Shown: piece after piece, positions 3 to 25,507 of the stretch
How positions within the stretch are numbered: position 1 is the first letter of the stretch
Layout: every line of letters begins with the position of its first letter
IMG/VR virus record: IMGVR_UViG_3300024518_000876
Coordinates: 1-26,954 of that record
DNA: 26,954 nucleotides
Origin: a virus
Reading direction: 5' to 3' (one strand)
The notes under the pieces: model-generated
The model's input: the letters and a program-made list of their open reading frames with translations, nothing else
The model's database searches: none
Told to the model about the DNA's origin: nothing
Made by a program: the position numbers and the translations under genes

Positions 3-701
3 GTTAACGGCTAAATAAACATTATTAGAGGTTAATACACCACCGTTATAAGTGTTATTTACTTCTATATCTACAAATACACTTTGAGTAACTAAAGTAC
101 CGTTATAAGTGTTATTTATAAAATCATTTACTTGCCTACTAATATCTATGTAAATATTATTATCATTTAAAAATCTTGGTTTTTTTGTATAGGTGTAAGT
201 TGGTGTACTTGGTTTACTAACATTTAAAACACCCTCATAAATAAATACTTTGTATTCTGTACTGATACTACTAACTAAATTAGAGCCATCAAATACGGGT
301 GAAGATATAAAAAATGGACTTCTAACATTTATACGTCTAACTGAAACACTTAAATCAAACTCCACCTCAAAAGTTATCCCTGTAAATGTAGATACTCCAC
401 CACTAAATGCTATACTTTCATTTAAAGCCGTTATAGTTACAACATTGTCAAATCTACTAACTGAATACAAAGCTGGGTTTAAATCTCTATTACCAGCAAA
501 TTCAAATAATTGAGCGTTAAGAATACCTTGTTGAGTTGGGTCAGCTAATTGTACTGCAATTTCAAAAGATTGTGGGAATATATTTACATAATCCCAAACA
601 ACTTGAGTTGTAACACCTAATGTATCTTCTTGAGTTAATGTTATATTTTGCCCTACATTGGGTTGTGTATTATCAAATGTTAATTTTATAAAGTTGCTCA
701 T
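3..701 (-). CDS. Putative virion structural protein, 3' end runs off the window
   Basis: Not in the ORF track (no stop in window). ATG at 701 overlaps the TGA of 698..1210 (ATGA). Translates MSNFIKLTFDNTQPNVGQNITL...RINVRSPFFISS...NNTYNG; rich in T/V/N, in a morphogenesis context. Confidence 0.7.
   Translation of the reverse strand, partial: MSNFIKLTFDNTQPNVGQNITLTQEDTLGVTTQVVWDYVNIFPQSFEIAVQLADPTQQGILNAQLFEFAGNRDLNPALYSVSRFDNVVTITALNESIAFSGGVSTFTGITFEVEFDLSVSVRRINVRSPFFISSPVFDGSNLVSSISTEYKVFIYEGVLNVSKPSTPTYTYTKKPRFLNDNNIYIDISRQVNDFINNTYNGTLVTQSVFVDIEVNNTYNGGVLTSNNVYLAVN
42..118. repeat. 20-bp perfect direct repeat ACCGTTATAAGTGTTATTTA (42-61, 99-118)
   Basis: Read directly; copies are 57 bp (19 codons) apart and in frame, both encoding NNTYNG. 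Confidence 0.85.
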
Positions 702-1210
702 GTTGTAAAGTCTAAAAAGTTATCTAAATCTAGGTTAAATGCCTTAACTATTTCGTCTGGTAGTTTCTTAAATTGTTGTTCAAAAGATAAACTAAAAAAT
801 TTTGTAGGTTTTTGTCCTTTTGAAAATATATGCCTACTCATTATAAAACCAAATTGTTTTGCAGTAATAAACTTACCTGTTTTTTTATCTCTTGGTTTAA
901 TCCCTTTAGCCTTTGCCCATTTACCAAATACACTTGGTGGTGGTGGTTTAGTTGTATAAGAGTATGGTGTATCATATTTTTGGTCAACACCACTAACACC
1001 TTTATCTACATACTCACCATAATCTAACATTTCAAAACTAAATGAAACTATATTACCATTGTTAGATATTTTAGCGGGTGTAAAACTTAAAGAATTATAT
1101 AAATCACTTGTTGCATTCTTTTTTTCTTTTGTAAGTCTACTTCTTGACTGTTGTACAACTGCTTTACCAAACTTATTTAATGCTCTTTCTGTGTTTATGG
1201 GTTTACGCAT
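698..1210 (-). CDS. Putative neck/tail-completion protein
   Basis: 170 aa, basic; motifs LYNSL, MLDYGEYVDKGV, PPPSVFGKW, GQKPTKFF resemble phage head-tail completion proteins; position in the structural block. Confidence 0.55.
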   Translation of the reverse strand: MRKPINTERALNKFGKAVVQQSRSRLTKEKKNATSDLYNSLSFTPAKISNNGNIVSFSFEMLDYGEYVDKGVSGVDQKYDTPYSYTTKPPPPSVFGKWAKAKGIKPRDKKTGKFITAKQFGFIMSRHIFSKGQKPTKFFSLSFEQQFKKLPDEIVKAFNLDLDNFLDFTT

Positions 1211-1659
1211 ACGTCAATCTCTGGACTTGGTACTCCAATATTAAAAGTTAAATCCCATCCCGCTAATCTGTTTTGTGTTTCAGTATCTAAAACTTTATCA
1301 AATGTTGGTTGTCCATCAATATAAATACTTTCTCCTACTGAATTTCTTCTCATTAGCATAAAGAACCTCCTAATAATATTATCTGTATTATTATAAACCT
1401 CTTGTAAATTGTCATTACCTAAAAACTTCTCTTGTGTAATGTTGTTATTTTCTGTAACAATATCTAATACAGAAACAACCACAGTATAAATATTTAGATT
1501 TTCTTCTACTGTACCATTATTAACCACAATATGCGCCATAATAGGTATGTTTTGCCTGTATGCGTCTAAATCATCAATATCACCCTCAGTGATAGTAATA
1601 ACCCTTGCATCTGTCCTTAAAGTATCTTTTATGCCGTTTATTAATTTAAAGTAACTCAT
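1195..1659 (-). CDS. Putative tail-terminator-like structural protein
   Basis: 154 aa, acidic, ends NRLAGWDLTFNIGVP; size and position fit a tail terminator. Confidence 0.5.
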   Translation of the reverse strand: MSYFKLINGIKDTLRTDARVITITEGDIDDLDAYRQNIPIMAHIVVNNGTVEENLNIYTVVVSVLDIVTENNNITQEKFLGNDNLQEVYNNTDNIIRRFFMLMRRNSVGESIYIDGQPTFDKVLDTETQNRLAGWDLTFNIGVPSPEIDVCVNP

Positions 1660-1661
1660 GT

Positions 1662-1904
1662 TTATTTTTTTATAGGTCGCATTAATTTAGCCTTATCACT
1701 CTCAAAGGCTAATCTAAATAATACTTTATTGATAGGGATGTATTGTACTTCTTCAATTCTGATACGCTCTGCGCTAGCGTATGTATCATAAGTCTGATAC
1801 CATCCCCATTTTTTACTGAATCTAATTGCTCTATCGTCTGCACTTGTTCCGCTTGACTCATAAAGTTCTGGGTATCGTTTACTAATTCGCTCCCTAAATT
1901 CAAA
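1662..1904 (-). CDS. Alternative -1-frame C-terminus (80 aa) of the 1709..2428 gene; fusion about 255 aa
   Basis: -1 frame is open from the T10 run to TAA at 1664-1662 (FEFRERISKRYPEL...FSKKWGWYQTYD...LAFESDKAKLMRPIKK) and ends 2 nt before the next ATG (1659). A TGA lies just upstream of the run in this frame, and its only ATG is 6 codons from the end. Confidence 0.7.
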   Translation of the reverse strand, partial: FEFRERISKRYPELYESSGTSADDRAIRFSKKWGWYQTYDTYASAERIRIEEVQYIPINKVLFRLAFESDKAKLMRPIKK

Positions 1905-2428
1905 AAAAAAAGCAATGCGCTCTCATAAATCTCATAAGGCGCATCTTTAAAAATATCAGTATTATTTTTGTGGTTGTAGGCTTGTATTTTATAAGTTCCT
2001 TTTTTGTTCTTAGAAAACAAACTTTTGTAAAACTTCTCTTTTATTACGGGACGATAAAGTACGTTTAAAATACTGTAAGCATTTGCGTCAGCATTCCCCA
2101 ATAATTTATCTAACGTACCATATTCGCCCGTACTCATGTTTTCAATATCGGGAATAAACCCATATTTAACACCGTTTAAATCAAATGTTAAATGTAATGT
2201 ACTTTCAGTATTTAAAGCCTCTGTAACAACTTTTAATGCGTGTTGGTATTCTTTAAATGGTAACTTATCTACTAAAGAAATAGGTATATTTAAACACTCA
2301 GCTAATAATTGTGTTTCTGTAACTTCTGACTCTCTATCTTCTGCTATTTTATAAAGCCGACTAATACTTAAAAACCTTTCGACTGTTATATCTTTTTTAG
2401 TTTCTGGTATTGTGTAAGTTAAATTCAT
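1709..2428 (-). CDS. Conserved phage protein, probable tail-assembly-chaperone-type frameshifting gene (0-frame product 239 aa)
   Basis: ORF track; motifs YGFIPDIENMSTGEY, LYRPV, ALLFFL; contains the CTT TTT TTT TTG slippery run. Confidence 0.65.
   Translation of the reverse strand: MNLTYTIPETKKDITVERFLSISRLYKIAEDRESEVTETQLLAECLNIPISLVDKLPFKEYQHALKVVTEALNTESTLHLTFDLNGVKYGFIPDIENMSTGEYGTLDKLLGNADANAYSILNVLYRPVIKEKFYKSLFSKNKKGTYKIQAYNHKNNTDIFKDAPYEIYESALLFFLNLGSELVNDTQNFMSQAEQVQTIEQLDSVKNGDGIRLMIHTLAQSVSELKKYNTSLSIKYYLD
1902..1911 (-). promoter_or_regulatory. Candidate -1 frameshift / slippage site (T10)
   Basis: A10 on the + strand gives a T TTT TTT heptamer in the correct phase, followed by an open -1 frame. 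Confidence 0.65.
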
Positions 2429-2448
2429 TATAGATTTAGTTTATTAAT

Positions 2449-2461
2449 TGTAAATATACAA
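2449..2461 (-). promoter_or_regulatory. Candidate promoter element TTGTATATTTACA, copy 1
   Basis: Identical 13-mer at 4286-4298; both are intergenic and just upstream of morphogenesis genes; resembles the Bacteroidota -7 box TAnnTTTG. Confidence 0.5.
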
Positions 2462-2466
2462 TAAAT

Positions 2467-3627
2467 TTACCTTATATCTACACCGCTTTTTTTGTTACTT
2501 AAAGTCATTACTGCAAAGTATCTCATTGCATCTATACAATGATTGAAATTATCAATAGGTTTATTTAGTTTGTTTCCCTCTCGGTCTGTGTCCCAAGTGT
2601 AATTTCTTAATTCCTTAATTAAATTTGTACTTTGTTTAGTAACCTTAAAAGAGTTTTCTTGTAATAACGATATACCATAATTAATACTGTCTTTTCCTTT
2701 CTTAGCACCCTTTATAATAACTCCAGAACGTCTAATTTCTTCTATACTTTTTGGCTCGGCACTATCTGCAAAAATAAACCTCCTTAAATCTTTCTTGCAA
2801 AGTTTAGCAATATCATTATTTAATAAACCTGTTCTATAAACTGACTCATGAAAAATTATTTCATTGTTATATTTGTAAGCATCAATTAATGTTGTAGGGT
2901 CATTTGTATAACCAAAATCCATACCGCTACCTAAATACTTGGCATCTGTTGGTAAACTGTCAATCTGTTGCCAATTCTCAAACACTACACCGTCTAAATT
3001 ACCAACGTGACCAAGTCCATAAACATTATACCAATTTTTCCAAAAGTTAGATTTAACTGCTTTCTCTTTTGCTTTGAGTATAAAATCTATTGCCGACTGC
3101 GGGCAAGCCTCATTATCTTCATAAGTTAGTATTATAAAGTCAGTATCTTTATCCCCCTCTAATTCGTTATGAAACCAAAACTTTGCAGTAGGGTTCCAAT
3201 CTAAAAACACTTCTTTTTTTGTCCTACTTGCTAATTCTGTATATGCATGAAATGTCATATTGTTACATTCATTCATGTATAGAATATCTCTCCTTGCCCC
3301 TCTTAACTTTGCATCATTATCAGCACTAAAAAATTCTATGTAACTACCATTAGGAAACTGAAACTTTGAGTCTGTTCTGTTAAAATAATTATCATACCAA
3401 CGATTAGTTAATAGCATTATCTTTTTAAAGTCTTTTAACGCACCCCTTTTTAAATGTGGTATTGACTCAGCAACTATACTAATTTCTAAGTTAGGTGTTT
3501 GTATTGCCCTATTAATAAGAACAGGTAGAATACCGAAAGTTTTACCCGCAGATGTTCCACCTTGTATTCCCTTAATCCTTTTTTTTAAGGATAGTATTTT
3601 ATTTATTGCAGTTGTTCTTTTAAACAT
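2467..3627 (-). CDS. terL: Terminase large subunit, PBSX family
   Basis: Walker A QGGTSAGKT, Walker B ILYMNE, coupling motif DWNP, nuclease motifs GMDFGYTNDPT, ADSAEPKSI, NHCIDAMRY. Confidence 0.95.
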   Translation of the reverse strand: MFKRTTAINKILSLKKRIKGIQGGTSAGKTFGILPVLINRAIQTPNLEISIVAESIPHLKRGALKDFKKIMLLTNRWYDNYFNRTDSKFQFPNGSYIEFFSADNDAKLRGARRDILYMNECNNMTFHAYTELASRTKKEVFLDWNPTAKFWFHNELEGDKDTDFIILTYEDNEACPQSAIDFILKAKEKAVKSNFWKNWYNVYGLGHVGNLDGVVFENWQQIDSLPTDAKYLGSGMDFGYTNDPTTLIDAYKYNNEIIFHESVYRTGLLNNDIAKLCKKDLRRFIFADSAEPKSIEEIRRSGVIIKGAKKGKDSINYGISLLQENSFKVTKQSTNLIKELRNYTWDTDREGNKLNKPIDNFNHCIDAMRYFAVMTLSNKKSGVDIR

Positions 3628-3891
3628 TTATAGTTCATCTGGAAACAATGGTTGTATCTCGTTAATTGTTATGTCTTTTGTTTCTGTCGGTTTACCTAAA
3701 GAATACTCTAAAAGTAATTTACTAGCTGGTATATCTTGCTCATCAATCGCTTTACCTAATAGCATAGTCAAAACCTCTGCAAGTTTCTCAACTGTAACAA
3801 CACTTTTAACAACGTCTTTATATTCGTTCTTTCGTTTGTCTGCTCCTTTTGTTTTGGTGCTATGTCCTCCGTTTTGTTTTCGTTTATCCAT
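3628..3891 (-). CDS. Probable terminase small subunit
   Basis: 87 aa abutting terL upstream; RKQNGG N-terminus and ASKLLLEYSLGKP motif. Confidence 0.65.
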   Translation of the reverse strand: MDKRKQNGGHSTKTKGADKRKNEYKDVVKSVVTVEKLAEVLTMLLGKAIDEQDIPASKLLLEYSLGKPTETKDITINEIQPLFPDEL

Positions 3892-3932
3892 GATTAATAG
3901 AAATTAACTATTAATTTATTTATTAAATTTTT

Positions 3933-4283
3933 TTACTCTCTTTCGTACACCTTATTAATTTTGTTAATCCAAGTTTTCCAAGTAGATACCCCACAAGTGT
4001 AACAAGGTTTAACGCTCATTGCTAAACAGTCTTTTAATAGCCTCACAATTAGCTTAGTTTCTTCTAACTCTATTTTGTTTTGATTCGGTCTATTAATAAA
4101 TGTTTCCCACTCTAAACGCTCTGATTCGTTTAAGTTTCTTTTGTAAGGGAATAACTTATTTAACTTCTCTTGTCGTTTGTTGCAACCCTCGCATTCTCCT
4201 ACAAGTTTTTTGATACCTGTTACTTCTGTTATCTTTGCAACTGTGTCTCCTAATCCTTTTTTTGTTTTTCTTTTTCTTGCCAT
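3933..4283 (-). CDS. Conserved phage protein with CxxC pairs
   Basis: ATG at 4283 (MARKRK) preferred to TTG 4298, which lies within the promoter-like 13-mer; KGLGDTVAKIT, CEGC, CYTC. Confidence 0.75.
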   Translation of the reverse strand: MARKRKTKKGLGDTVAKITEVTGIKKLVGECEGCNKRQEKLNKLFPYKRNLNESERLEWETFINRPNQNKIELEETKLIVRLLKDCLAMSVKPCYTCGVSTWKTWINKINKVYERE

Positions 4284-4285
4284 AG

Positions 4286-4298
4286 TGTAAATATACAA
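4286..4298 (-). promoter_or_regulatory. Candidate promoter element TTGTATATTTACA, copy 2
   Basis: Identical to 2449-2461; upstream of the terminase operon. Confidence 0.5.
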
Positions 4299-4325
4299 AA
4301 TTTAAAAATACGCCATTAAAACGGC

Positions 4326-4638
4326 TCATAACACGTAATATAATTAATACTCTATTTCGTGCTTATCAATAACATATTTGGTAAACTCGTCAGCGGTTAA
4401 GTAGTGCTTCAATACATCATCAAAGTGCTTCATATCCCTTCGGGCGTTTACATCAGAGTTTCTAATTCTAATTAGTGCACTAACTACAATTCTATCTTCT
4501 TCATCTCTTGGTATCTTAACTAACACCCTCATACTTCTTTCGGTTTCTCTAACACTATCTAAAACCGCTTCATGCATTTTCATATCCATAATATTCTATT
4601 TTTTAAATACGTACTAATCATATTACCATTCATTAGGT
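4326..4638 (+). repeat. attC-like element E1, enclosing a whole gene
   Basis: TCATAAC 4326-4332; arms GTAATATAATTAATAC (4335-4350) and GTACTAATCATATTAC (4611-4626), 14/16 complementary; right core degenerate A|TTAGGT. Confidence 0.6.
4344..4589 (-). CDS. Hypothetical protein, nested in E1
   Basis: 81-aa ORF with ATG start and A-rich leader. Confidence 0.7.
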   Translation of the reverse strand: MDMKMHEAVLDSVRETERSMRVLVKIPRDEEDRIVVSALIRIRNSDVNARRDMKHFDDVLKHYLTADEFTKYVIDKHEIEY

Positions 4639-4839
4639 AACATTTACCCATTCGTCATTTTTAAATACTTCTACTTGCCACCATCTAAGCTCTGTTACCT
4701 CACCATTCATAGAGCTATCAATTTCATCACACCAAAGTATATTTATTATCCTATATTTTAATGGATTTAATCCTACCACAATACCTTCGTAGTAGCAATC
4801 ACCATCTTCTATATCTCTTATTTTATCTCCTATTTTCAT
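4633..4839 (-). CDS. Hypothetical cassette protein
   Basis: 68 aa, MKIGDKIR start suggests an SH3/KOW-like barrel; stop codon coincides with the TTA of the core site. Confidence 0.75.
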   Translation of the reverse strand: MKIGDKIRDIEDGDCYYEGIVVGLNPLKYRIINILWCDEIDSSMNGEVTELRWWQVEVFKNDEWVNVT

Positions 4840-4858
4840 ATTACTTAATTTAAACGTT

Positions 4859-4910
4859 ACCTAACAAAGTATAAAGTCCATTAAAACGCACCTTATACAA
4901 TGCGTTGTAA
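4859..4910 (+). repeat. attC-like element E2
   Basis: ACCTAAC aaa GTATAAAG tc CATTAAAACG ca CCTTATAC aatgc GTTGTAA. Confidence 0.8.
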
Positions 4911-4916
4911 GTAATA

Positions 4917-5129
4917 CTATCCTTCGTCTTCAAATTGATATATTGGGTGTAAAATAGATTTAGGGTTCTTCCTTTTTAATCCATTTTCGGTTATCTTTTT
5001 AATAGCATTGTTTATCACTTTTGCACCACCTTTGCTTATCCAAGTATCTCTACTATTTAAGTGGCTTTCAAAAGCAAGTGCTACATAATAAAGTTCTTTG
5101 TCTGTAAAATCTATTTTTTCTCGTCCCAT
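4917..5129 (-). CDS. Hypothetical cassette protein
   Basis: 70-aa ORF filling the interval between E2 and E3. Confidence 0.75.
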   Translation of the reverse strand: MGREKIDFTDKELYYVALAFESHLNSRDTWISKGGAKVINNAIKKITENGLKRKNPKSILHPIYQFEDEG

Positions 5130-5161
5130 ATTTAAGTTTTGTTATTAATTATCCGTACTAC

Positions 5162-5212
5162 TTACAACTAATATTAAACAACATTAAAACGTTGTTTACT
5201 CTTTAGTTATGT
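5162..5212 (+). repeat. attC-like element E3
   Basis: TTACAAC..TAAACAAC ATTAAAAC GTTGTTTA..GTTATGT. Confidence 0.75.
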
Positions 5213-5458
5213 GCAATTTAATTTTAAAATATTTTTTGCACTGCTTTCTTTATACGCTCGCCACAAGCTACGTCTTTGCCAATAGTTAAAATGTATTACA
5301 GTTGGTGTCTGTATTTTAATTGACCTTCTGCCGTTTGCTATCCATAGGTGTATTCCCCAAGTATCATTCATATATCTACATTCACCTAATTCCCATTGCT
5401 CGCTATTTTCATCCATAGAAGCAATTATTTTGTTTACTAATTCTTTCTTGTTTTCCAT
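5207..5458 (-). CDS. Hypothetical cassette protein
   Basis: ATG at 5458; stop codon coincides with the TTA of the E3 core. Confidence 0.75.
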   Translation of the reverse strand: MENKKELVNKIIASMDENSEQWELGECRYMNDTWGIHLWIANGRRSIKIQTPTVIHFNYWQRRSLWRAYKESSAKNILKLNCT

Positions 5459-5493
5459 CAAAAATATTTTAAAATTAAACTGTTCACTTCGTC

Positions 5494-5554
5494 ACATAAC
5501 AATGTATATAATTAACTCCATTTCATTCCGCAAATCATATACGGAACGTTATAA
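5494..5554 (+). repeat. attC-like element E4
   Basis: ACATAAC aat GTATATAATT..AATCATATAC ggaac GTTATAA. Confidence 0.8.
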
Positions 5555-5558
5555 ATAA

Positions 5559-5765
5559 TTAAATTACTTCATTCGCTCCTTTTGGTAATTCAGCCCAATG
5601 CGTTATTGGGTTGTCCGTTACAAAATCACCGCCCCAATTTTGCCAAAAACCTCTATCACTTAAATTTGAGTAATTAGCTATAAATATTCCGTTATTTTTT
5701 AAGCAAACAAGGTAAATACCAATTGTTTTTTTTGGCAAACTTTCTTTTATATCAATCCATTCCAT
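5559..5765 (-). CDS. DUF551-like phage protein
   Basis: MEWIDIKESLP...YLV...ITHWAELP pattern; start moved to ATG 5765 because the longer ORF-track start lies in E5. Confidence 0.75.
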   Translation of the reverse strand: MEWIDIKESLPKKTIGIYLVCLKNNGIFIANYSNLSDRGFWQNWGGDFVTDNPITHWAELPKGANEVI

Positions 5766-5776
5766 AATTAAACTAT

Positions 5777-5837
5777 TAATAACATTGTTTATATTCCATT
5801 TTCGTACCTCAAACGGTACATACACTAACCGTTATGG
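5777..5837 (+). repeat. attC-like element E5
   Basis: TAATAAC att GTTTAT..CC.TTT..AAA.GG..ATACAC taacc GTTATGG. Confidence 0.65.
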
Positions 5838-5842
5838 TGCAA

Positions 5843-5938
5843 TTAAAAAAGACACATAACACCGTATAAAAACAATGCTATACTTATCCCTATTAAAACT
5901 GCTTTTGTTGCACTTGGATAATTTGGTAATTTTCTCAT
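5843..5938 (-). CDS. 31-aa hydrophobic microprotein starting inside E6
   Basis: Below the ORF-track cutoff: MRKLPNYPSATKAVLIGISIALFLYGVMCLF; A-rich leader; one TM-like stretch. Confidence 0.5.
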   Translation of the reverse strand: MRKLPNYPSATKAVLIGISIALFLYGVMCLF

Positions 5939-5985
5939 AGTTTTATCTTTTTAATTCGCACTTTTCTTATACAATCACGTTATAA
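5854..5985 (+). repeat. attC-like element E6 (long loop)
   Basis: ACATAAC acc GTATAAAAACAATGC (5864-5878)..GCACTTTTCTTATAC (5958-5972) aatcac GTTATAA; arms 12/15 complementary. Confidence 0.75.
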
Positions 5986-6186
5986 TTAATCAATCCATAA
6001 TACCGACCTTGTAGAAGTGTAACTATCTCCACTAATATACCCAATCGGTAATAAAACATACTCTTCTTCTAAGTAAGCATCTCCATCTTCAAATTTTATA
6101 TCTTTAATTGTAGTACTTGGTTTTATCCAACCTTTTTTAATGTACTCTTTTAATTTATTTTTTCTGTTCTCTATTATTTTATTCAT
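5986..6186 (-). CDS. Hypothetical cassette protein
   Basis: 66-aa ORF between E6 and E7. Confidence 0.75.
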   Translation of the reverse strand: MNKIIENRKNKLKEYIKKGWIKPSTTIKDIKFEDGDAYLEEEYVLLPIGYISGDSYTSTRSVLWID

Positions 6187-6200
6187 ATTTTTAAATTTAA

Positions 6201-6253
6201 TTATAACACTATGTATAGCACATTAAAACGATGCCATACACAATACGTTGTAA
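6201..6253 (+). repeat. attC-like element E7
   Basis: TTATAAC acta TGTATAGCA CATTAAAACG a TGCCATACA caatac GTTGTAA. Confidence 0.8.
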
Positions 6254-6262
6254 GTAATTGTA

Positions 6263-6643
6263 CTAAACCTTGTTAATTGTATCTTCACATGGTCTGCAAA
6301 TATTGTAAGTCACTTTAGCCTTGTTTTCATTGCATACTTCGCACAACTGTTCGCTTTGCCGTACAACACTGGGTATAGCAAATGATTCTTTGGCTTCATA
6401 TTTAGCTACTATTTCAGCCTTATCTATAAATTCATTACCTCCATCTTTTTCAAGCATTGTAAGTAAGCCAATTAACAGTTCACTTCGTTTGCTAATATTT
6501 TGTATAGTTAAATTTTTAACCTTACATTTTAGCTCCTTTATATCTTCCTTGTACTTGTCACAGTATTTACTTAGCCCTGCAACTGCTTGCCTACTCATCT
6601 TTAGGTCTTCCTGCAATTCTCTTATTTTTCCTTTTTGTGCCAT
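6263..6643 (-). CDS. Hypothetical coiled-coil protein with C-terminal CxxC..CxxC; reads through two attC-like left arms
   Basis: 126 aa; internal repeats LTIQNISKRSELL and FAIPSVVRQSEQL map onto the arms at 6474-6510 and 6345-6380. Confidence 0.75.
   Translation of the reverse strand: MAQKGKIRELQEDLKMSRQAVAGLSKYCDKYKEDIKELKCKVKNLTIQNISKRSELLIGLLTMLEKDGGNEFIDKAEIVAKYEAKESFAIPSVVRQSEQLCEVCNENKAKVTYNICRPCEDTINKV
6361..6380 (+). repeat. Orphan attC-like left arm E8 inside a CDS
   Basis: GTACAAC actgg GTATAGCA, similar to the left arm of E7; no clear right arm. Confidence 0.55.
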
Positions 6644-6694
6644 TTTTGTTTATTTAATCGGTTAAAAATCAAACCATACAATTTACCGTTATAA
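6490..6694 (+). repeat. attC-like element E9 enclosing the 5' part of 6263..6643
   Basis: Arms TTGTATAGTTAAATTTTTAACC (6500-6521) and GGTTAAAAATCAAACCATACAA (6660-6681), 19/22 complementary; left core degenerate TGCTAAT, right core GTTATAA. Confidence 0.7.
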
Positions 6695-6749
6695 ACAATT
6701 AGTTTGTCCATATCTTCTAAATTCATAATTTTAAAAGTTTATACCATTA

Positions 6750-6947
6750 TTACAAAAGTTGCACTTTAGTCCAAGCTGCAATGTAGATTTTATTACCATC
6801 TTTATCTATACCATTACAATACATTCCATCAAGTCTATGTATAGTAATTTCATCTCCTTTTTTTATTGACACTGACTCAGGTGGGGTCTTTACATTTTCA
6901 TCAATTACTACTACTTTGGTTCCATATTTAACATTATGTGCTTCCAT
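6750..6947 (-). CDS. Hypothetical protein, possible SH3-like barrel
   Basis: 65-aa beta-rich ORF directly downstream of the helicase. Confidence 0.7.
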   Translation of the reverse strand: MEAHNVKYGTKVVVIDENVKTPPESVSIKKGDEITIHRLDGMYCNGIDKDGNKIYIAAWTKVQLL

Positions 6948-6953
6948 ATTTTT

Positions 6954-8204
6954 TTAATTTAATTTATTTAGGCAATCTTGAACATCTGTACAATATATAA
7001 AATTATAATTTTGCACTTGTTCAAACATTTTATTTACCCATACTTTTTCTTGAGTATCTGCTGTCATAATGATAAATACTTTACCAATCTGACCGTTCTC
7101 TCTTAATCTTCCTAATCTTTGTATTAAATCTTTTTGTTTAGAGTAATAAGACATTAATATACAAGCATCTAAATCCTTTAAATTAGCACCTTGTTTTAGC
7201 TTTTTAAACGACCCAATGACTCTTATATAATTATTATCAAATGCAGTTCTTATTTGGCTGTTTTTAGCCTCAGAATTACGAGATGATACTGTATTCTTTG
7301 TCACTTGTAATAAAGAATCTATAGAGTTACCAAATATTATAACTTTACCAGTTAATTTTCTGATTATTTGTTTAGTAACTTCTATTTTAGAAGGTAAATC
7401 ATACAGAATTTTACTTCTTCTACCTGCTGCACTAGTAATTTTAATGCTTTTTTGATTCTCTAATTTTTCAATTCTTTTTAGATATGTTTTGTGGTCCTCC
7501 CCTTCTTTTTTATTATAATTAATTTCAGCATTTATATTATCTTTAAATACTTTATCCCAATATGTATATGCTTTAGCTTCAGTTTGCATAAAAGGCTTTC
7601 TAGCACTTCCTGCTTTAATACTTTTAACTGAGTCATCTAACTTATGATTAATTATATAGATGTCTAAATTTCTAGCTGTACCTTCCTCTAAACCCTGATT
7701 TAAATGATACTGATAACATATAGGCGCTACTTTAGATAAATAGTAACCTTTTGTTTTATTTTCTTCTTCATAATAAGTTTCAACATCTATTAAGGCTGAT
7801 AAACCTATAATAGCAGAAAAATCATTATTTTTATAGAATTGAGAATAGGCAGGTGTTAAGCTATCATGTATTTCATCAGCTATAACTAATCCTATTCTTC
7901 TTCCTTTCCACTTATAAACAGTCTGATAACATTCAAACTGTAGATTGTAATCTACTAATACGTTTCTATTAAATATTTCATTATATTTATTTATCTGCGC
8001 TAGTAAATCACGTTGTCTGTCAACTACTTCTGCCAAAAAGTAATGTACTACATTTTTATCTTTAGGCATTGTATATAGGGCATGTAGCCCAACAAAGGTT
8101 TTACCTAACCCGGTTATAATTTCACATGTACCATGCTTATCACTGTTTAACCAGGCAGATATAGCCTTTTGTTGAACTTCATCCTTTTTCTTAATACTAA
8201 TCAA
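6954..8204 (-). CDS. Superfamily 2 (DExH, ResIII/UvsW-like) helicase
   Basis: TGLGKT, IADEIH, GLSA, QGANL, QRLGRLR; TTG start. Confidence 0.9.
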   Translation of the reverse strand: MISIKKKDEVQQKAISAWLNSDKHGTCEIITGLGKTFVGLHALYTMPKDKNVVHYFLAEVVDRQRDLLAQINKYNEIFNRNVLVDYNLQFECYQTVYKWKGRRIGLVIADEIHDSLTPAYSQFYKNNDFSAIIGLSALIDVETYYEEENKTKGYYLSKVAPICYQYHLNQGLEEGTARNLDIYIINHKLDDSVKSIKAGSARKPFMQTEAKAYTYWDKVFKDNINAEINYNKKEGEDHKTYLKRIEKLENQKSIKITSAAGRRSKILYDLPSKIEVTKQIIRKLTGKVIIFGNSIDSLLQVTKNTVSSRNSEAKNSQIRTAFDNNYIRVIGSFKKLKQGANLKDLDACILMSYYSKQKDLIQRLGRLRENGQIGKVFIIMTADTQEKVWVNKMFEQVQNYNFIYCTDVQDCLNKLN

Positions 8205-8206
8205 TA

Positions 8207-8320
8207 CTAATTATTTTTTAATAGTAATATAACATTTTGTATTTCTGCTATTTCATCAGATCCAAGTCTATCACTCCAATCTAACATTTGTTGTAATTTT
8301 TGAATTGCTTTTTTATTCAT
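8207..8320 (-). CDS. 37-aa hypothetical protein
   Basis: Below cutoff: MNKKAIQKLQQMLDWSDRLGSDEIAEIQNVILLLKNN; fills the nrdA-helicase gap with 2-nt spacers on both sides. Confidence 0.65.
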   Translation of the reverse strand: MNKKAIQKLQQMLDWSDRLGSDEIAEIQNVILLLKNN

Positions 8321-8322
8321 AA

Positions 8323-10047
8323 TTATCCTTCGCACATCTGACACTCAGAGTATAAGTCTCTTTGTTCAGAATCCGCTCTTAAAATACTTTCACTTCTAAA
8401 ATAGTATAGAGCTTTTAACCCTACTTCCCATGCAGCTATATGTACTTGATTAATAAATTTAGCAGGAGCATCTTGTTGAAATGCTAAGTTAATACTTTGA
8501 CCTTGGTCAATATATTTTTGTCTCAACCCTGCTTGTTTAACTAGTTCAAGTTGATTAATTTCCTTAAAGGTTTTAAATACATCCTTTTCTTCTTCAGATA
8601 GGCATCTAATATTTGCTACTGAACCTTTATCTGCAATAATTTGATCCCACACTTGGTGAATATCTCTTTCTTTACTTTGTAATAACTTAACTAACTCTGG
8701 ATTTCTTCTAATATGCAAACCCTTAGCATCATCATCTACATAGATATTAGCTGCTAATGGTTCTACACCCTGCGAAATACCTCCGGCAAGCTTAGCAGAG
8801 CTCCTATTAGGTGCAATAGCCATTAAAGTAAGGTTTCTACGACCTGTTCCTTTACACCATTCTGGTTCTCCTAATACTTCTCCTAATTCTAATGTAGCTG
8901 CTTCTGATTTAGCTTGTATATCTCCAAATATTTTATTAGTTAATCCATTAGCATATATAGAAACAAATGGTATATTTTTAGATTGTAAATAAGAATGCCA
9001 TCCTAATGTACCTAAACCTAGTGCTCTAGATTTTATAGCAAATCTTGTAGCATCTTCTATACCTTTTATATGCCTACTTCTATTTATGAAATCTTCTATT
9101 ACTGCGTCTAAAAAGTAAATAGCTAATTTAACAGTATTAGTATCTTTCCATTCGTCACACTTGTGCAAATTTAAAGAAGATAAACAACATACTAAGGTAT
9201 GATTAGGATCAGTTGGTAACATAATCTCACTACATAAATTACTATGATGTATTGTTAAATTATTCTTTTGCCAAAATCCTGGTAAGTTTTTATTTGCATT
9301 ATCTTTAAAGAATACATAAGGTTCACCTGTTTTAACTCTTTTCTTTAATGTTTCAGTCCAAAGTTTACGTTCTTTACCATTAGAAGCAATTACTTTGTGC
9401 ATAAAAGAGTCTTCTACTACTGCTCCTTGATGTATATTATGACATTGTCTATTAATATCTCCTTTAGGTTCTCTTATTTCTAAGAAATCTTCATAATCAC
9501 CATGATTTGTATTTAGGTACATTGCTACTGCACCTCTTCTGGTATCTCCTTGTTTTGAGGCTAATATTGTACTATCATAAGATTTAATCTGAGGAATAAC
9601 TCCATCTGCTTTACCTAATTCTCCATTTCTAATAAGAGCACCTGTAGGACGTACTAATGAAAAATCATAAGCAGTACCTCCACCACATTTAGATAACATT
9701 CTTAATTCAGTCTGTTTACGACCTAATTCAAACATATCATCTCCTACTTGTCCTGAAAAACAACTAATAGGTAATCCTTTATTTGTACCAAAATTAACCA
9801 TAACAGGAGTGGATGGTATTAACCACCCATTCCATAGTATGTTGAAAAATTCACTCTCTAACGATGCATCTTTTAAATAATAAGCTGCCGTAACTGCAAG
9901 TCTTTGATAACCTTGCTTAGGTGTTTCATTCTCCTGTAAATAACCACCTTTAATAGTAGTTAAATATAAAGGGTTATTACCCCATTCTGGATAGTCTTTA
10001 CCTGCTACCCATCCCATATCGCTCGCTAATTTATGAGTTTCTATCAT
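8323..10047 (-). CDS. nrdA: Class I ribonucleotide reductase alpha subunit (short, no ATP cone)
   Basis: GLPISCF, GGGT, RRGA, SNLCSEI, APNRSS, DQGQS, LYYFRS, C-terminal CQMCEG. Confidence 0.95.
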   Translation of the reverse strand: MIETHKLASDMGWVAGKDYPEWGNNPLYLTTIKGGYLQENETPKQGYQRLAVTAAYYLKDASLESEFFNILWNGWLIPSTPVMVNFGTNKGLPISCFSGQVGDDMFELGRKQTELRMLSKCGGGTAYDFSLVRPTGALIRNGELGKADGVIPQIKSYDSTILASKQGDTRRGAVAMYLNTNHGDYEDFLEIREPKGDINRQCHNIHQGAVVEDSFMHKVIASNGKERKLWTETLKKRVKTGEPYVFFKDNANKNLPGFWQKNNLTIHHSNLCSEIMLPTDPNHTLVCCLSSLNLHKCDEWKDTNTVKLAIYFLDAVIEDFINRSRHIKGIEDATRFAIKSRALGLGTLGWHSYLQSKNIPFVSIYANGLTNKIFGDIQAKSEAATLELGEVLGEPEWCKGTGRRNLTLMAIAPNRSSAKLAGGISQGVEPLAANIYVDDDAKGLHIRRNPELVKLLQSKERDIHQVWDQIIADKGSVANIRCLSEEEKDVFKTFKEINQLELVKQAGLRQKYIDQGQSINLAFQQDAPAKFINQVHIAAWEVGLKALYYFRSESILRADSEQRDLYSECQMCEG

Positions 10048-10050
10048 ATA

Positions 10051-10251
10051 TTAGTATAAATTTGTTATAAAGTTAGTACGCATCCTTACTGCTTCTGCAG
10101 TGGTTGTAGCTAATCCAACATAGTAACTATTAGACTTTGAATTGTTTCTAACATTTACTCTTACTTCAAATTTTCCTGTAGCTTTATGCTTACTTATTCC
10201 TTTTAAGCCCGTATTAGTTGAGCGTATTTTTCTTGTTTTTTCCATCTTCAT
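10051..10251 (-). CDS. Stand-alone AP2-like DNA-binding protein
   Basis: NTGLKGIS..GKFEVRV..YVGLATTTAEAVRMR matches the AP2 pattern of HNH-AP2 endonucleases; no HNH motif. Confidence 0.65.
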   Translation of the reverse strand: MKMEKTRKIRSTNTGLKGISKHKATGKFEVRVNVRNNSKSNSYYVGLATTTAEAVRMRTNFITNLY

Positions 10252-10264
10252 GTATTATTTTTTA

Positions 10265-11224
10265 TTAAAATAAATCCTCTTCCCAATCTTCATTTGGTTT
10301 ACTATAATTAGTTTCTCTGTTAACAAAGAAATCAGTCTGTTGTTCTCCAGACACTAATATGTAAAACCATTTCATTTCTTTAAATAGTTCATCGTCTACT
10401 TGATATATAGGTTCTAAATTCAACTCTACTAATTTCCTGTTAGCTCTATCAAGCATAAAATTTTTAAGTTGTTCTTTAGAAATGGTCTCTAGACCTTTAC
10501 CAGTAAATACACTGTCTATGTAATGAAATTCATTTTGTATAGCTAAATCTATACCTTGATATATTGAGTCTTTTAACTCTTTATCCCATATATCTGGGTT
10601 TTCTTCTATAATAGTTCTAAAAATCTTACACCCTGCTTCAGAATGCAATGATTCATCTCTAACTGAAAATATCATTTGTTGACCTACTCCAGTTAATCTA
10701 TTGCTTTTTCTAAATGAAAGCAATATAGCAAAGCTACTAAATAATTGTATACCTTCAGCTGCTGCACTGAATAAAGCTATAGATCTTGCTTTATCTCTTA
10801 ATGTACCAGTATTAGGTTCTACTTTCATTAGTATTCCTAACTTACGCATTGTAGCTTCGTCTTCTAAAAATTCTTCAAAATTATCTAGTCCTAATGAATC
10901 ATTTAAATAACTATAAGCTACTGCATGAATAGTCTCAAAAGCACCAAAAGTTTGTCCCATCATTTTAATTTCAGGAACAGGAAACCATTGTGGAATATAA
11001 GAACTCCAATAGTTACCTACTTGTGTTTCAGTTTGGGTAAATCCTTTTAGAATATTACCAATTGTTTGTTTTTCATCTTCATTTAAGTTTTCATTCCAAT
11101 CCTTAATATCTTGTGCCATGTTGATTTCAGTATGCAACCAATGTGCATTCTGTTGTTTAAACCAATAATCATAAGCCCATTGATATTGAAATGGTTTAAA
11201 AGCTATCCTTTCTTTATTTATCAT
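10265..11224 (-). CDS. nrdB: Class I ribonucleotide reductase beta subunit
   Basis: KPFQYQWA, HW, ETIHAVAY, EGIQLFSSF, RDESLH, TDFF..R.T.Y. Confidence 0.95.
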   Translation of the reverse strand: MINKERIAFKPFQYQWAYDYWFKQQNAHWLHTEINMAQDIKDWNENLNEDEKQTIGNILKGFTQTETQVGNYWSSYIPQWFPVPEIKMMGQTFGAFETIHAVAYSYLNDSLGLDNFEEFLEDEATMRKLGILMKVEPNTGTLRDKARSIALFSAAAEGIQLFSSFAILLSFRKSNRLTGVGQQMIFSVRDESLHSEAGCKIFRTIIEENPDIWDKELKDSIYQGIDLAIQNEFHYIDSVFTGKGLETISKEQLKNFMLDRANRKLVELNLEPIYQVDDELFKEMKWFYILVSGEQQTDFFVNRETNYSKPNEDWEEDLF

Positions 11225-11228
11225 TTAT

Positions 11229-11732
11229 TTATTTGTTTGTGCTACCAAACCCATTACTACCTCGCTCAGTAGTATCTAAGGCTTCTTCTAGCCATTCGCA
11301 TTGTTCTACTTTGTTTAGTACTCCTTGTGCTATTCTTTCTCCTAATTTCAATTTAACATTAAAGTTACCATGATTTACTAAGATTATATCCACTTCTCCT
11401 CTAAAATCTGAATCTATAGTTCCAGGAGAATTCATAATAGTAATACCTTGATTCCAAGCCATACCACTTCTAGGACGTACTTGTAATTCGTATCCTTTAG
11501 GAATCTCCATTTTAATTCCTGTACCTATTTTAAGCCTGTATCCAGGTTTAAATTCTACTTCAGTATTATCATGTGCAGAGATTAATTCTTCTCCCATTCC
11601 CATTCCTTCTATGTACCTACCTACTGCAATTATTTTAAAATTATTAATTATAAAATCAAAACCTGCAGATCCAGTGGTCTGATATGAAGGTAACTCTACT
11701 TTATCATTACATCTTAATACTTTTACTTTCAT
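11229..11732 (-). CDS. dut: Trimeric dUTPase
   Basis: SAGFD, RPRSG, GTIDSDFRGE, RIAQ, RGSNGFGST. Confidence 0.95.
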   Translation of the reverse strand: MKVKVLRCNDKVELPSYQTTGSAGFDFIINNFKIIAVGRYIEGMGMGEELISAHDNTEVEFKPGYRLKIGTGIKMEIPKGYELQVRPRSGMAWNQGITIMNSPGTIDSDFRGEVDIILVNHGNFNVKLKLGERIAQGVLNKVEQCEWLEEALDTTERGSNGFGSTNK

Positions 11733-12282
11733 TGTTTTTTTCTTTTAATTCAAAGGATTCATTAGATTTATAAACATAATCCCCTAATTCTGCATTACTA
11801 TTTATTTTGACTTTTAAATTCTTTTCTAATTCTTTCCTTAATGATTGCTCTTTATATAAAATTTGCTTAAGTTTCCTTAAAAACCCAATCGCGGCAGGTT
11901 TGTCTCCGTAGACATCTGTCCAAAATTCTAGTATTAACTCTTTGGCATCTTCCCCAAATTCTGAGTACTTACTTTCAATTAACTTATTATACTCTGTCAA
12001 GTATTCTTCTGGAAATTTAAATACATAAAGTACTTTATTACCAATATCTATTAACTCTACAAATAATTCATTTTTTGTAAACTTATGTTCATACTTAGTA
12101 AACTCAGGATTTTTAAAATCAAAGTCATGTAAAAGAAGTAAACAATTTGGATATTTATCATCCATATCAAACATAAATGTATTCTCTAAAAAAGGAAGAA
12201 AATCTTTATCAAACTCTAAAATTTCACTAAGTAGAGGTAACAAATATGTTTTTGATTTATTATATTTTATTTTTTTACTCAT
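11707..12282 (-). CDS. Conserved hypothetical phage protein
   Basis: 191 aa overlapping both neighbours; YLLPLL and SKYSEF motifs; no function recognised. Confidence 0.8.
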   Translation of the reverse strand: MSKKIKYNKSKTYLLPLLSEILEFDKDFLPFLENTFMFDMDDKYPNCLLLLHDFDFKNPEFTKYEHKFTKNELFVELIDIGNKVLYVFKFPEEYLTEYNKLIESKYSEFGEDAKELILEFWTDVYGDKPAAIGFLRKLKQILYKEQSLRKELEKNLKVKINSNAELGDYVYKSNESFELKEKNNESKSIKM

Positions 12283-13342
12283 CTACTACATTTATAAAGT
12301 TATCATTTAGTTCTTTATGTCCGTTAGATTCGTGAGTTAATTTACTTGTACTAAATACTTTATTAATCCAATGCCAAGCAATTAAATCTATAGTTTCATC
12401 TAATCCTGGGAAATAAATTCCTCTGTCAGTTGTAAACCCATTTAAAGCTGCTTTTTCCCACTTCTCTGTAAAAGTATATATAGCGGGTATTTTGTCAAAC
12501 CTAGATATATACACAAAATCAAATGGTAATACTGTATAACCTTCTATTTGTAACAACTTCATAACTTTATTAGCTGCAATTTGGTACAATTTAGCTTGTA
12601 TATAGTAGTTAAACGCTAATACACTGCTTAGAAATTGTCCTTCATTTTTAGCTCCAGTCTTTAAATCTTTAATAGCTATAGTTTTATTTTCATGGTCTAC
12701 TTGTACCATATCTAGATATGCTAAAAAGTCAAATCCACGGTAATTAAAAGTAACTTCAAATTGATAATGATTCTCTAAATCCGTATCAAATAAATGCTTA
12801 GTATGAGAATGTGTTCTCAGTGCATTTACAGTTAAATCTGCGTTATCTTTCTCTACTACTGTTATAACTTCTTTTCCTTCAGATAGTGCTGTATTATATA
12901 CATACGTTACAAATTCTTCAGTAAGTATTTTTTCAAGTCTTTTAGCAGGGTCTGTAGTTCTAACCCAGAGTCCTTCAGATGCATACAGTAATGCTTGTAA
13001 AAAGTTTTCATTTATATCTGTAATTTCTTCATCTACAATTGCTAATGAACTAATAATCTCTTTTGCAGATAAACTATTTAATACGTTATCTGCCACTACT
13101 CCTAAAGAAGCTGTTGGTTTTTTAAAATCATTAATAACATACTCGTCATTAAATCTTTCTTTTTCAAATAATAATAAATCTATTAATTTACCCATTTTAA
13201 TACCTTCATTAGAGATTTTCTTACGTTTCTCTAACACTGAAGGTCCGTTTTGTATAAATGAGGATACTCTACTTGCTGATAGTCTTAAATCAGAATTAGT
13301 TGAGTCCGATAGTAAATTTTCTAGTGTGCTTGCTTCTCCCAT
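12275..13342 (-). CDS. PD-(D/E)xK (RecB/Cas4-like) exonuclease
   Basis: LSASRV, GKLID, YLD..KDLKTG, YYIQAKLY. Confidence 0.8.
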   Translation of the reverse strand: MGEASTLENLLSDSTNSDLRLSASRVSSFIQNGPSVLEKRKKISNEGIKMGKLIDLLLFEKERFNDEYVINDFKKPTASLGVVADNVLNSLSAKEIISSLAIVDEEITDINENFLQALLYASEGLWVRTTDPAKRLEKILTEEFVTYVYNTALSEGKEVITVVEKDNADLTVNALRTHSHTKHLFDTDLENHYQFEVTFNYRGFDFLAYLDMVQVDHENKTIAIKDLKTGAKNEGQFLSSVLAFNYYIQAKLYQIAANKVMKLLQIEGYTVLPFDFVYISRFDKIPAIYTFTEKWEKAALNGFTTDRGIYFPGLDETIDLIAWHWINKVFSTSKLTHESNGHKELNDNFINVVDE

Positions 13343-13613
13343 TCGCCCTTGTTTTATTTGTAATTGAACTCTCTATTGCATTAATTGTGTAATCATATAA
13401 CTTATTACATTCTTTAATTTGAGTATCAACTACTGGGTCTTTTAACCCATTAATTTTTAATTCTGTTTGTTGCCTATCTAGTTCCATTAACGTATTGTCT
13501 ATAACTAACCTAGCTGAGTTGTATTCATTACTATTTAAATAATTTACAAATTTCTCACAACGTTCATTTGTTAATATTTGCTTCGCAGCAGTTTCTATTT
13601 TTTTGTTTATCAT
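13296..13613 (-). CDS. Hypothetical helical protein
   Basis: Likely ATG at 13613 (MINKKIE), 1 nt after the upstream stop. Confidence 0.7.
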   Translation of the reverse strand: MINKKIETAAKQILTNERCEKFVNYLNSNEYNSARLVIDNTLMELDRQQTELKINGLKDPVVDTQIKECNKLYDYTINAIESSITNKTRANGRSKHTRKFTIGLN

Positions 13614-13614
13614 A

Positions 13615-14082
13615 TTAAAATATTTTAAGATAAACACCGGGAGCTTCCTTGTCCACACTGTACCATTTTACAGTTCTAATGTTATCTTCTGTTGGTAATT
13701 CGCCATCTATTGACATTGGTACAGGGTATATTCTACTAACATCATCATCTTCAATAAAATCATGTGCTGTTAATAAATCAAATATAATCTCTGTACTATT
13801 TCCAAAATCAAATAGTCGCTTACTCTTTCTTACTTGGTGAAATCCTAAGAAAATAGGGTTTCCCTTATCTCCTCTCATTTCATCCCATTCCGCCCTTAAT
13901 TGTTCAAATTTATTGGGTCTAGTCTTATCTACGTAGCCTTTTACTGTCTTTCTAGTAGAACTAAACGCTTGTATTCCTAAACTCCTAATAAACCTATTAA
14001 CAGTAGGGGAACTGAATATTCCCCTAGCTGTTTTTACTTTTGAATTCTTTAGAGAAGGTACATTTCCTTCTATAAATATCAT
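13615..14082 (-). CDS. RusA-like Holliday junction resolvase
   Basis: Likely ATG at 14082; GNVPSLKN, RLFDFGN..IFDLL..IEDDD acidic pattern. Confidence 0.7.
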   Translation of the reverse strand: MIFIEGNVPSLKNSKVKTARGIFSSPTVNRFIRSLGIQAFSSTRKTVKGYVDKTRPNKFEQLRAEWDEMRGDKGNPIFLGFHQVRKSKRLFDFGNSTEIIFDLLTAHDFIEDDDVSRIYPVPMSIDGELPTEDNIRTVKWYSVDKEAPGVYLKIF

Positions 14083-14107
14083 TAATTTATTCTTCTCATA
14101 GTTTTTA

Positions 14108-17308: not shown

Positions 17309-17318
17309 TTTTATTTTT

Positions 17319-19187: not shown

Positions 19188-19188
19188 A

Positions 19189-20001: not shown

Positions 20002-20028
20002 TTTTTTAAATTTTAAATATTGTTTATA

Positions 20029-20745: not shown

Positions 20746-20746
20746 C

Positions 20747-22016: not shown

Positions 22017-22025
22017 ATATTTTTT

Positions 22026-23063: not shown

Positions 23064-23089
23064 AAGAAAAAGGGGCTAATTAAAGCCCC
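23064..23089 (-). terminator. Rho-independent terminator after the SSB-like gene
   Basis: Minus strand GGGGCT TTAATT AGCCCC TTTTTCTT. Confidence 0.75.
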
Positions 23090-23105
23090 ATTATTTAGTT
23101 AATAA

Positions 23106-23678: not shown

Positions 23679-23740
23679 ATTTATTTTTTTATTATTTATT
23701 ATTTTAATTTTTTAATGTTGTATAGTAGTATCTTTTACTA

Positions 23741-24508: not shown

Positions 24509-24530
24509 CTTCCTGTACCATCATCTTCCT
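24503..24530. repeat. 12-bp direct repeat duplicating the translation start (minus strand AGGAAGATGATG x2)
   Basis: CATCATCTTCCT at 24503-24514 and 24519-24530. Confidence 0.8.
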
Positions 24531-24538
24531 ACCTTTAA

Positions 24539-25189: not shown

Positions 25190-25190
25190 A

Positions 25191-25490: not shown

Positions 25491-25507
25491 TATTTATTTA
25501 TTTTTAA

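Follow-up and report, generated by a model that had tools for sequence, protein, structure and literature searches.

Private stems enclose consecutive small genes of a phage accessory array and may close their cistrons in the mRNA

The window analyzed here, 26,954 nt in length, comprises the first part of a 103,499-nt virus record of IMG/VR (IMGVR_UViG_3300024518_000876; G+C ~30%), and according to its list of open reading frames the minus strand holds every gene. The region from 6954 to 26954 codes for replication and nucleotide-metabolism proteins, among them a helicase, a ribonucleotide reductase, an exonuclease and a primase. Downstream of these genes a run of small ORFs extends on the same strand from 6947 down to 4344, and is followed by the genes for a 116-aa CxxC protein, an 87-aa protein and a 386-aa large terminase of the Terminase_3 type (2467..3627). 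The small ORFs from 3628 to 6947 all share the minus-strand orientation and constitute a co-oriented array. The 116-aa protein (CxxC...CxxC; 3933-4283; phrog_32048), encoded just upstream of the 386-aa terminase, is widespread, with more than 560 relatives in viral contigs. A truncated gene at the start of the window (3..701), which is also the end of the contig, contains an exact 20-nt repeat (42-61 and 99-118). The features of the array that concern us are the following:

4309..4332, minus strand: hairpin-like local module that follows immediately on the 3' arm of the 81-aa gene and has the apex CGTTTTAATG; an exact copy lies at 103029-103052 of the record
4335..4350, minus strand: 3' (downstream) arm of the 81-aa gene, sense RNA 5'-GUAUUAAUUAUAUUAC, holding the TAA stop codon
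4344..4589, minus strand: cargo gene for an 81-aa protein, a predicted four-helix bundle with 25 homologues at 73-93% identity
4590..4610, minus strand: A-rich leader from the stem to the start codon, predicted to be mostly unpaired
4611..4626, minus strand: 5' (upstream) arm of the 81-aa gene, sense RNA 5'-GUAAUAUGAUUAGUAC, ending 21 nt before the ATG, present in the MFE and centroid folds and covarying with 4335-4350
4629..4646, minus strand: 3' arm of the 68-aa gene's stem, 2 nt from the 5' arm of the 81-aa gene; contains ATT (sense AAU, 4634-4632)
4851..4868, minus strand: 5' arm of the 68-aa gene's stem (18 bp, 3 G.U; gene 4633..4839)
4869..4898, minus strand: local hairpin with the apex CGTTTTAATG, between the stems of the 70-aa and 68-aa genes; a near-identical one occurs in Tenacibaculum phage JQ
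4904..4917, minus strand: 3' arm of the 70-aa gene's stem (14 bp, 1 G.U; partner 5155-5168; gene 4917..5129); the 127-nt repeat at the end of the record breaks off at its outer end, 4903
5214..5236, minus strand: 3' arm of the 83-aa gene's stem (23 bp, 1 G.U; partner 5460-5482; gene 5207..5458)
5977..5989, minus strand: 3' arm of the 66-aa gene's stem (13 bp, 2 G.U; partner 6197-6209; gene 5986..6186)
A 31-codon ORF of the array, minus strand: bulged 15-bp stem

The 81-aa gene (ATG 4589-4587, TAA 4346-4344) lies between two arms, 4335-4350 (GTAATATAATTAATAC) and 4611-4626 (GTACTAATCATATTAC), which are 260 nt apart and complementary at 14 of 16 positions, with the stop codon situated within the left arm. 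This arrangement, which had been noticed in a preliminary description of the DNA, is present in every particular. Both mismatches of the DNA read as G.U on the coding (minus) strand, and hence in the corresponding RNA GUAAUAUGAUUAGUAC (4626 to 4611) pairs with GUAUUAAUUAUAUUAC (4350 to 4335) at 16 of 16 positions, as an uninterrupted helix with 14 Watson-Crick and two G.U pairs. The element as a whole measures ~313 nt and consists of the arms GUAAUAU.../...AUAUUAC around the 246-nt ORF. The encoded protein matched no Pfam or PHROG family, and its AlphaFold model (pLDDT 70) found no Foldseek match in PDB or BFVD.

At least four neighboring small genes each possess a private stem of 13-23 bp with the same design, and in every stemmed gene one arm is placed 0-25 nt before the ATG while the other covers or abuts the stop codon. 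The preliminary description had regarded the nested gene as a second cargo mode, distinct from nearby elements of 50-60 nt; instead, at least five genes in a row are nested in this way, which makes nesting the general mode here, and the shorter elements are separate local hairpins. Each combination of two genes was scored by the longest helix without interruption that the upstream flank of one can form with the downstream flank of the other, since RNAduplex energies, with their internal loops, proved too noisy for telling cognate and non-cognate pairs apart. Five genes have cognate scores of 22.5, 16.5, 15.0, 13.5 and 12.0 (15.0 being that of the 81-aa gene), as against a mean of 8.0 (sd 1.4, maximum 14, n=121) for non-cognate flank pairs, and the chance that five of 12 cognates reach 12 is ~5e-7. 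On the opposite strand the same flank test gave much lower cognate scores. Where one spacer holds two arms (the 3' arm of one gene and the 5' arm of the next), these pair less well with each other than with their gene-spanning partners.

Across the genome a score of 12 or more is attained by seven of 129 ORFs, compared to 0.8% of non-cognate pairs, and this array contains five of those ORFs; the only strong stem matches outside it are at 29890..30456 and 37356..37844. The former of these, beyond the window, is a 188-aa ORF within a helicase intron, which is closed by a perfect 13-bp stem. In related loci cognate stems were found around 16 of 74 ORFs, the majority of which have no relationship to the 81-aa protein, versus 1.5% for non-cognate pairs. 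The negative controls from other AT-rich phage loci yielded 0 of 157 and 1 of 793 ORFs (the latter from loci around homologues of the 116-aa gene), which indicates that AT-rich phage DNA does not in general give the stem signal. In 23 other loci the 68-aa gene has homologues, none with a stem; the stems go with lineage or region and not with gene families. For the 83-aa gene, viral contigs yielded no relative.

Loci of the 81-aa gene were recovered from viral and metagenome contigs; 15 of these had flanks, and an alignment of 13 rows (the window and 12 relatives) was used for covariation analysis. The gene-spanning helix is kept in 11 of the 15 loci with flanks and in 10 of the 13 aligned ones. 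Its arms come in three variants: A, GTAATATGATTAGTAC / GTATTAATTATATTAC; B, GGTATATAATTAGTAC / GTATTAATTATATACC; and C, ATTGTTATATTT(T)AGTAC / GTATTAAATATAACGGT. Variants A and B differ at two pairs in which both bases have changed in compensation (U-A to G-C and A-U to U-A), and one G.U pair of A is A-U in B. In the 13 rows 88.8% of the alignment cells are paired, compared to 25-47% when the partner is slid, and changes on both sides occur at four pairs, with the states UA/GC/UG at one and AU/UA at another. None of 500 shuffles reached the observed covariation score. The check put forward in the preliminary description thus comes out in favor of the hairpin: most homologous loci carry flanking arms, these covary, and a conserved 16-bp hairpin does enclose the 81-aa gene. 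The flanks of what would be one transcript are predicted to pair with each other, and compensatory changes maintain this pairing.

The helix is nevertheless not indispensable, because two of the loci (L007 and L012) have lost one arm and a third (L009) both, and because a homologue in Leptospira phage LE3 (38% identical), which overlaps its upstream gene, has no stem. Depending on the locus, at least eight different genes precede the 81-aa gene, and similarity between loci stops just outside the arms. In two loci with distant homologues of the protein (L015 and L016), which belong to another phage group, the gene is flanked by a ~28-nt direct repeat (TTTAGTTCACATTTRGATTAATTTGAA) and not by an inverted one, an arrangement resembling the promoter-early stem-loop (PeSL) modules considered below.

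Predicted folds also distinguish the two strands. The sense strand of the 313-nt element folds at -64.3 kcal/mol (z = -3.84; 0 of 100 shuffles were as good), versus -36.6 kcal/mol (z = -1.53) for the antisense strand. All 16 pairs of the stem appear uninterrupted in both the MFE and the centroid folds of the sense strand, with the A-rich leader open, and in a fold of 2 kb of sense sequence (4290-6300) all closing stems are present simultaneously. The coding region itself has predicted nested long-range helices (4569-4563/4398-4392 and 4557-4551/4408-4402), which add to the z of -3.84. An Rfam search of 3500-7100 returned no family at E<=1. A further view of the strand comes from the mismatches in 15 distinct stems from the window and its relatives, under a scoring scheme that treats G.T and A.C alike. 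Read on the coding strand these stems have 17 G.T mismatches, no A.C and no transversions, which means that on the opposite strand the 17 would be A.C. The 17 are not independent events, because several of them sit at conserved motif positions (TTAGUAC/GUAUUAA and CGUUU/AAAUG); a conservative count of ~11 independent cases gives p ~5e-4. The pairing hence appears, from the pattern of substitutions, to have been kept on a single strand of coding polarity, for which mRNA is the simplest candidate. Single-stranded DNA hairpins also tolerate G.T.

Comparison of the stems across loci reveals that they are separable from the genes they enclose. Typical arms have the form 5'-(G)TGTT-variable-CGTTT ... 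AAATG-variable-AAC(G), and a second class, which includes the 81-aa element, has the inner ends TTAGTAC ... GTATTAA. The 81-aa cargo is found with three sets of outer arms. Conversely, identical arms surround unrelated ORFs, namely a 45-aa ORF in L010 and a 62-aa ORF in L008, and a 104-aa ORF in L011 and a 70-aa ORF in L002; no BLASTP similarity was detected within these ORF pairs, and their DNA identity ends at the inner ends of the arms. A local hairpin of L010, GTGTTGTAAAA-TCGTTTTAATG-TTTTACAACGG, shares its arms with the stem that closes a 46-aa ORF in L008 and L012, which suggests that at least the hairpins with the apex CGTTTTAATG are empty versions of filled stems. This apex occurs six times in the record, on the coding strand only, where 0.2 are expected. 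A search of viral contigs for the empty form of the stem class of the 81-aa gene (ATTAGTAC-N0-30-GTATTAAT) gave, among the matches listed, only chance-like ones with at most five extra pairs. Breakpoints between related loci or copies fall at the ends of the hairpin module, and L007, in which the variant C upstream arm is combined with a downstream arm matching the stem of an unrelated ORF in L044, looks like the product of a crossover at GTATTAA. Of the preliminary interpretation, the topology is supported, and the comparison of loci shows the hairpins as sockets, empty or variously filled; the association with attC and integrons is unsupported, as detailed below.

The last 127 nt of the record (103373-103499) are an exact repeat of 4903-5029, and the edge of the repeat coincides with the outer end of the 3' arm of the 70-aa gene. 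This length would be usual for an assembler k-mer. A second large terminase, of the crAss type (766 aa, 50453..52753), is encoded elsewhere in the record, adjoining a portal and a major head protein. In light of the end repeat and the two large terminases, the segment 1-4902, with the 81-aa element and the 386-aa terminase, may belong to a second, JQ-like phage joined via a common cassette end, or may represent an alternative assembly branch. The stem itself is untouched by this doubt because independent contigs carry it; the doubt does bear on the statement that, in this genome, the element lies next to the terminase operon. A spacer near the end of the record (103029-103093) is a mosaic of two window spacers, in which a 44-nt stretch identical with 5166-5209 precedes a 24-nt stretch identical with 4309-4332, and its junctions fall directly after GTT.

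Among deposited phages the sole DNA match was to a spacer hairpin in Tenacibaculum phage JQ (MT002873.2). The small-gene array of JQ, upstream of its terminase (800-6600 of that record), follows the same grammar, including hairpins with the apex CGTTTTAATG. Its 63-aa gene is closed by GGTGTTAGGTGTAGTAC / GTATTACACCTAACGTT, a gene for a 221-aa DNA methyltransferase by TGTTACCCTTAGT / ATTAAGGGTAACG, and one for a 206-aa methyltransferase by an 11-bp stem. The hairpins and repeats are not mentioned in the paper on JQ (PMC11267871).

The preliminary description had called the 81-aa element attC-like, and the array does resemble those of integrons in several respects: small co-oriented ORFs, apparently without promoters of their own, are separated by imperfect hairpins whose structure is conserved over sequence, each unit begins with bases matching its own end, and many junctions have the form ...AAC(G) / GTT.... 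A genuine attC is an imperfect hairpin of 55-141 nt located 3' of the ORF, with the boxes R''/L''-L'/R' (RYYYAAC ... GTTRRRY); the folded site has extrahelical bases and an unpaired central spacer, and recombines as the folded bottom (non-coding) strand. Here, in contrast, arms of 13-23 bp private to each gene enclose the ORF, the helix is uninterrupted and lacks bulged or extrahelical bases, the strand that pairs perfectly is the coding one, and GTTRRRY/RYYYAAC are absent from the arms of the 81-aa gene; some other stems of the array start with GTT and end with AAC, yet they do not fit RRRY/RYYY. Further, IntI is lacking in the record and two complete relatives: in searches with positive controls, the tyrosine recombinase family (PF00589) had no match in the 103.5-kb record, in G001, a complete relative of 91.8 kb that has terminal repeats, or in phage JQ. 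Nor did the record yield a serine recombinase (PF00239), an HUH transposase (PF01797) or a GIY-YIG nuclease. In view of the missing recombinase, the missing boxes and bulges, the ORF-enclosing arms and the pairing of the coding strand, the 81-aa element does not look like an integron recombination site. Nor is there support for the suggestion that ATT in place of GTT at the right core may fix the element at the array end. The ATT is indeed there (4632-4634), but it is part of the stem of the 68-aa gene (sense AAU, with one G.U in pairing with GUU) and not of the 81-aa element. Its U still pairs in the window, as G.U, and in relatives the 81-aa gene is neither at an array end nor beside a terminase. 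Eight homologous loci with a recognizable junction have AACG at this site, where it ends the stems of eight different upstream genes.

The PeSL modules of T4-type phages, which are short, conserved stem-loop intergenic modules bounding small ORFs in hyperplastic regions, with insertions, deletions and replacements between related phages breaking inside them (PMC2839356, PMC4122927), provide another parallel. Here too a repeated hairpin, that with the apex CGTTTTAATG, found six times on one strand, bounds variable small ORFs, and breakpoints fall at the module ends. PeSLs, however, are direct repeats with an early promoter and a terminator-like hairpin, and gene-spanning complementarity has not been described for them; moreover, the phages considered here are those of Flavobacteriia, and their spacers, read by eye, show no exact -7 motif of the Bacteroidota type. 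The paper on phage phi14:2 reported no early-promoter motif.

Long-range processing stems flank the 16S and 23S rRNAs in bacterial rRNA operons, whereas the RNase III sites of the T7 early mRNA are local hairpins between genes. As in rRNA operons, both flanks of a unit within a (here putative) polycistronic transcript pair into a loop-closing helix that tolerates G.U and shows compensatory changes; unlike them, the present stems enclose protein-coding cistrons, are shorter at 13-23 bp and have only a putative cleavage, and the T7 sites differ in not being gene-spanning. Phage group I introns of the T4 td/I-TevI type also hold a complete protein gene in the loop of an RNA helix, with helix and cargo evolving separately; the stems described here have neither a ribozyme core, consistent with the negative Rfam result, nor a surrounding host gene. 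The Correia elements of Neisseria are MITE-like, with inverted ends that pair in mRNA, and the MPME elements of mycobacteriophages offer a further comparison; these are again short elements bounded by inverted repeats inside transcription units. Those elements share one repeat consensus and are associated with target duplications, whereas in the present array the arms differ for each gene, and neither duplication nor a transposase was found. We accordingly rejected transposon or MITE ends as an explanation, given the gene-to-gene differences of the arms, the unduplicated flanks (...AATG preceding and GTGT... following the borders) and the lack of PF00589, PF00239 and PF01797. An operator pair for one DNA-binding protein is ruled out by the same differences between arms. 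Gene-spanning stems (rRNA), ORFs in helix loops (introns) and shuffling at stem-loop modules (T4-type phages) are all already known. A literature search on gene-spanning stems or gene-in-hairpin arrays in phages returned nothing relevant, and we found no description of serial protein-coding cistrons each with a private covarying stem along with empty and filled sockets.

We favor the interpretation that stems in the mRNA close each cistron of a modular accessory-gene array, and assign it a probability of about 0.5. The 81-codon gene would then be one cistron of a co-oriented accessory array in which each cistron is looped by its own long-range helix in the coding-strand transcript, and its stem would represent a "socket" of a modular array common to marine Flavobacteriia phages. 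Stems and cargo would recombine independently, with breakpoints at conserved ends, which are GTT.../...AAC(G) on the outside and CGTTT/AAATG or TTAGTAC/GTATTAA on the inside. On this reading the stem would turn a swappable cistron into an independently folding unit with paired 5' and 3' ends. Such ends would either be protected from end-dependent nucleases or present a substrate to a double-strand-specific host nuclease such as one of the RNase III type, and the unpaired A-rich leader would be left free for ribosomes and initiation. Stems of 13-16 bp are short for RNase III, and as no RNase III gene was found in the phage record, cleavage would need a host enzyme. The exchange of cargo and stems could proceed by ordinary homology-driven or copy-choice recombination at the stem ends, as with the PeSLs (PMC2839356, PMC4122927). 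Against a role in the mRNA it may be held that some homologues dispense with the stem, and that the sharp breakpoints and the empty/filled pair fit a dedicated insertion at the DNA level equally well.

Of the competing explanations, chance complementarity in AT-rich intergenic DNA with common motifs draws on the fact that a bare DNA repeat of this quality and spacing is nothing unusual: 0.62 are expected in shuffles of 3600-7000 (3.4 kb), 43% of the shuffles have at least one, and under DNA scoring non-adjacent intergenic spacers match each other as well as adjacent ones. To that extent the caution that AT-rich 14/16 matches might arise by chance was warranted. These DNA-only statistics were set aside in consideration of the G.U pairing on the coding strand and the gene-anchored controls. 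The coding-strand helix goes beyond chance in its recurrence, its placement relative to start and stop codons, its strand asymmetry, its covariation and the clean negative controls; the comparison of cognate with non-cognate flanks, along with the covariation, refutes an accidental origin, which we consider extremely improbable. A different proposal accepts the sockets but denies them a function once filled, with intergenic hairpins, whether functional or not, serving as permissive landing or swap sites for ordinary recombination between co-infecting phages, and the split arms being functionless left-overs. The identity of the arms of the L010 hairpin with those around the 46-aa ORF, the unrelated ORFs within identical arms and the homologues that lost arms yet kept the gene would all be expected on this account. 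Left-overs should nonetheless decay, and the outer arms of the 81-aa gene instead diverge by paired compensatory changes to about the degree of the gene's own divergence; nor would decay leave 15 stems free of A.C and transversion mismatches. Furthermore, the inner stem overlaps the last codons of the gene, which means that the upstream arm must have been matched to those codons. We therefore regard functionless relics as unlikely.

The third proposal places the hairpin in the DNA, in a logic akin to that of integrons, with the coding strand folding as single-stranded DNA and an unrecognized recombinase or nuclease acting at the stem top (CGTTT^TAATG or TTAGTAC^/^GTATTAA). It would account for the sharp cargo/stem breakpoints at short conserved motifs in several independent comparisons, for the resemblance of L007 to a single crossover at GTATTAA, for the 127-nt cassette end common to apparently two different phages, for the excess of the apex CGTTTTAATG on one strand and for the empty/filled pair of L010 versus L008 and L012. 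Against it, the searches found neither a tyrosine recombinase (in the record and two complete relatives) nor a serine recombinase, HUH transposase or GIY-YIG nuclease (in the record); integron core sites are absent from the arms of the 81-aa gene, it is the coding strand that folds, opposite to the situation in integrons, and the empty form of this stem class was not found among the matches listed. In the array form, moreover, the arms within one spacer do not pair together, and the hairpin site would thus exist only around each gene. Taken together, we hold such a DNA-level site to be quite improbable. A bolder version, doubtful in our view, combines it with the role in the mRNA that we favor: an integrase-free analogue of the integron, in which a "hairpin socket" system of marine Flavobacteriia phages of unrelated morphotypes would carry private stems that are empty or filled with any one of many accessory genes (in phage JQ also DNA methyltransferase genes), a dedicated mechanism would insert or exchange genes precisely at the stem top, and the same stem would serve as a unit of expression and insulation in the mRNA.

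The array shows that an "integron-like" appearance can arise without an integron. The accessory genes of phages are the main reservoir of unknown functions, including host takeover and anti-defence, and beyond the PeSL modules it is poorly understood how they are shuffled and how they are expressed independently of context. The features described here, namely a private closing stem, conserved ends, tolerance of G.U on the coding strand and separability of stem and cargo, amount to a sequence grammar that can be searched for, and that predicts unit boundaries for very small ORFs. As the grammar also occurs in the cultured pair of Tenacibaculum geojense and phage JQ, both the role of the stems in RNA and the mechanism of exchange are directly testable.
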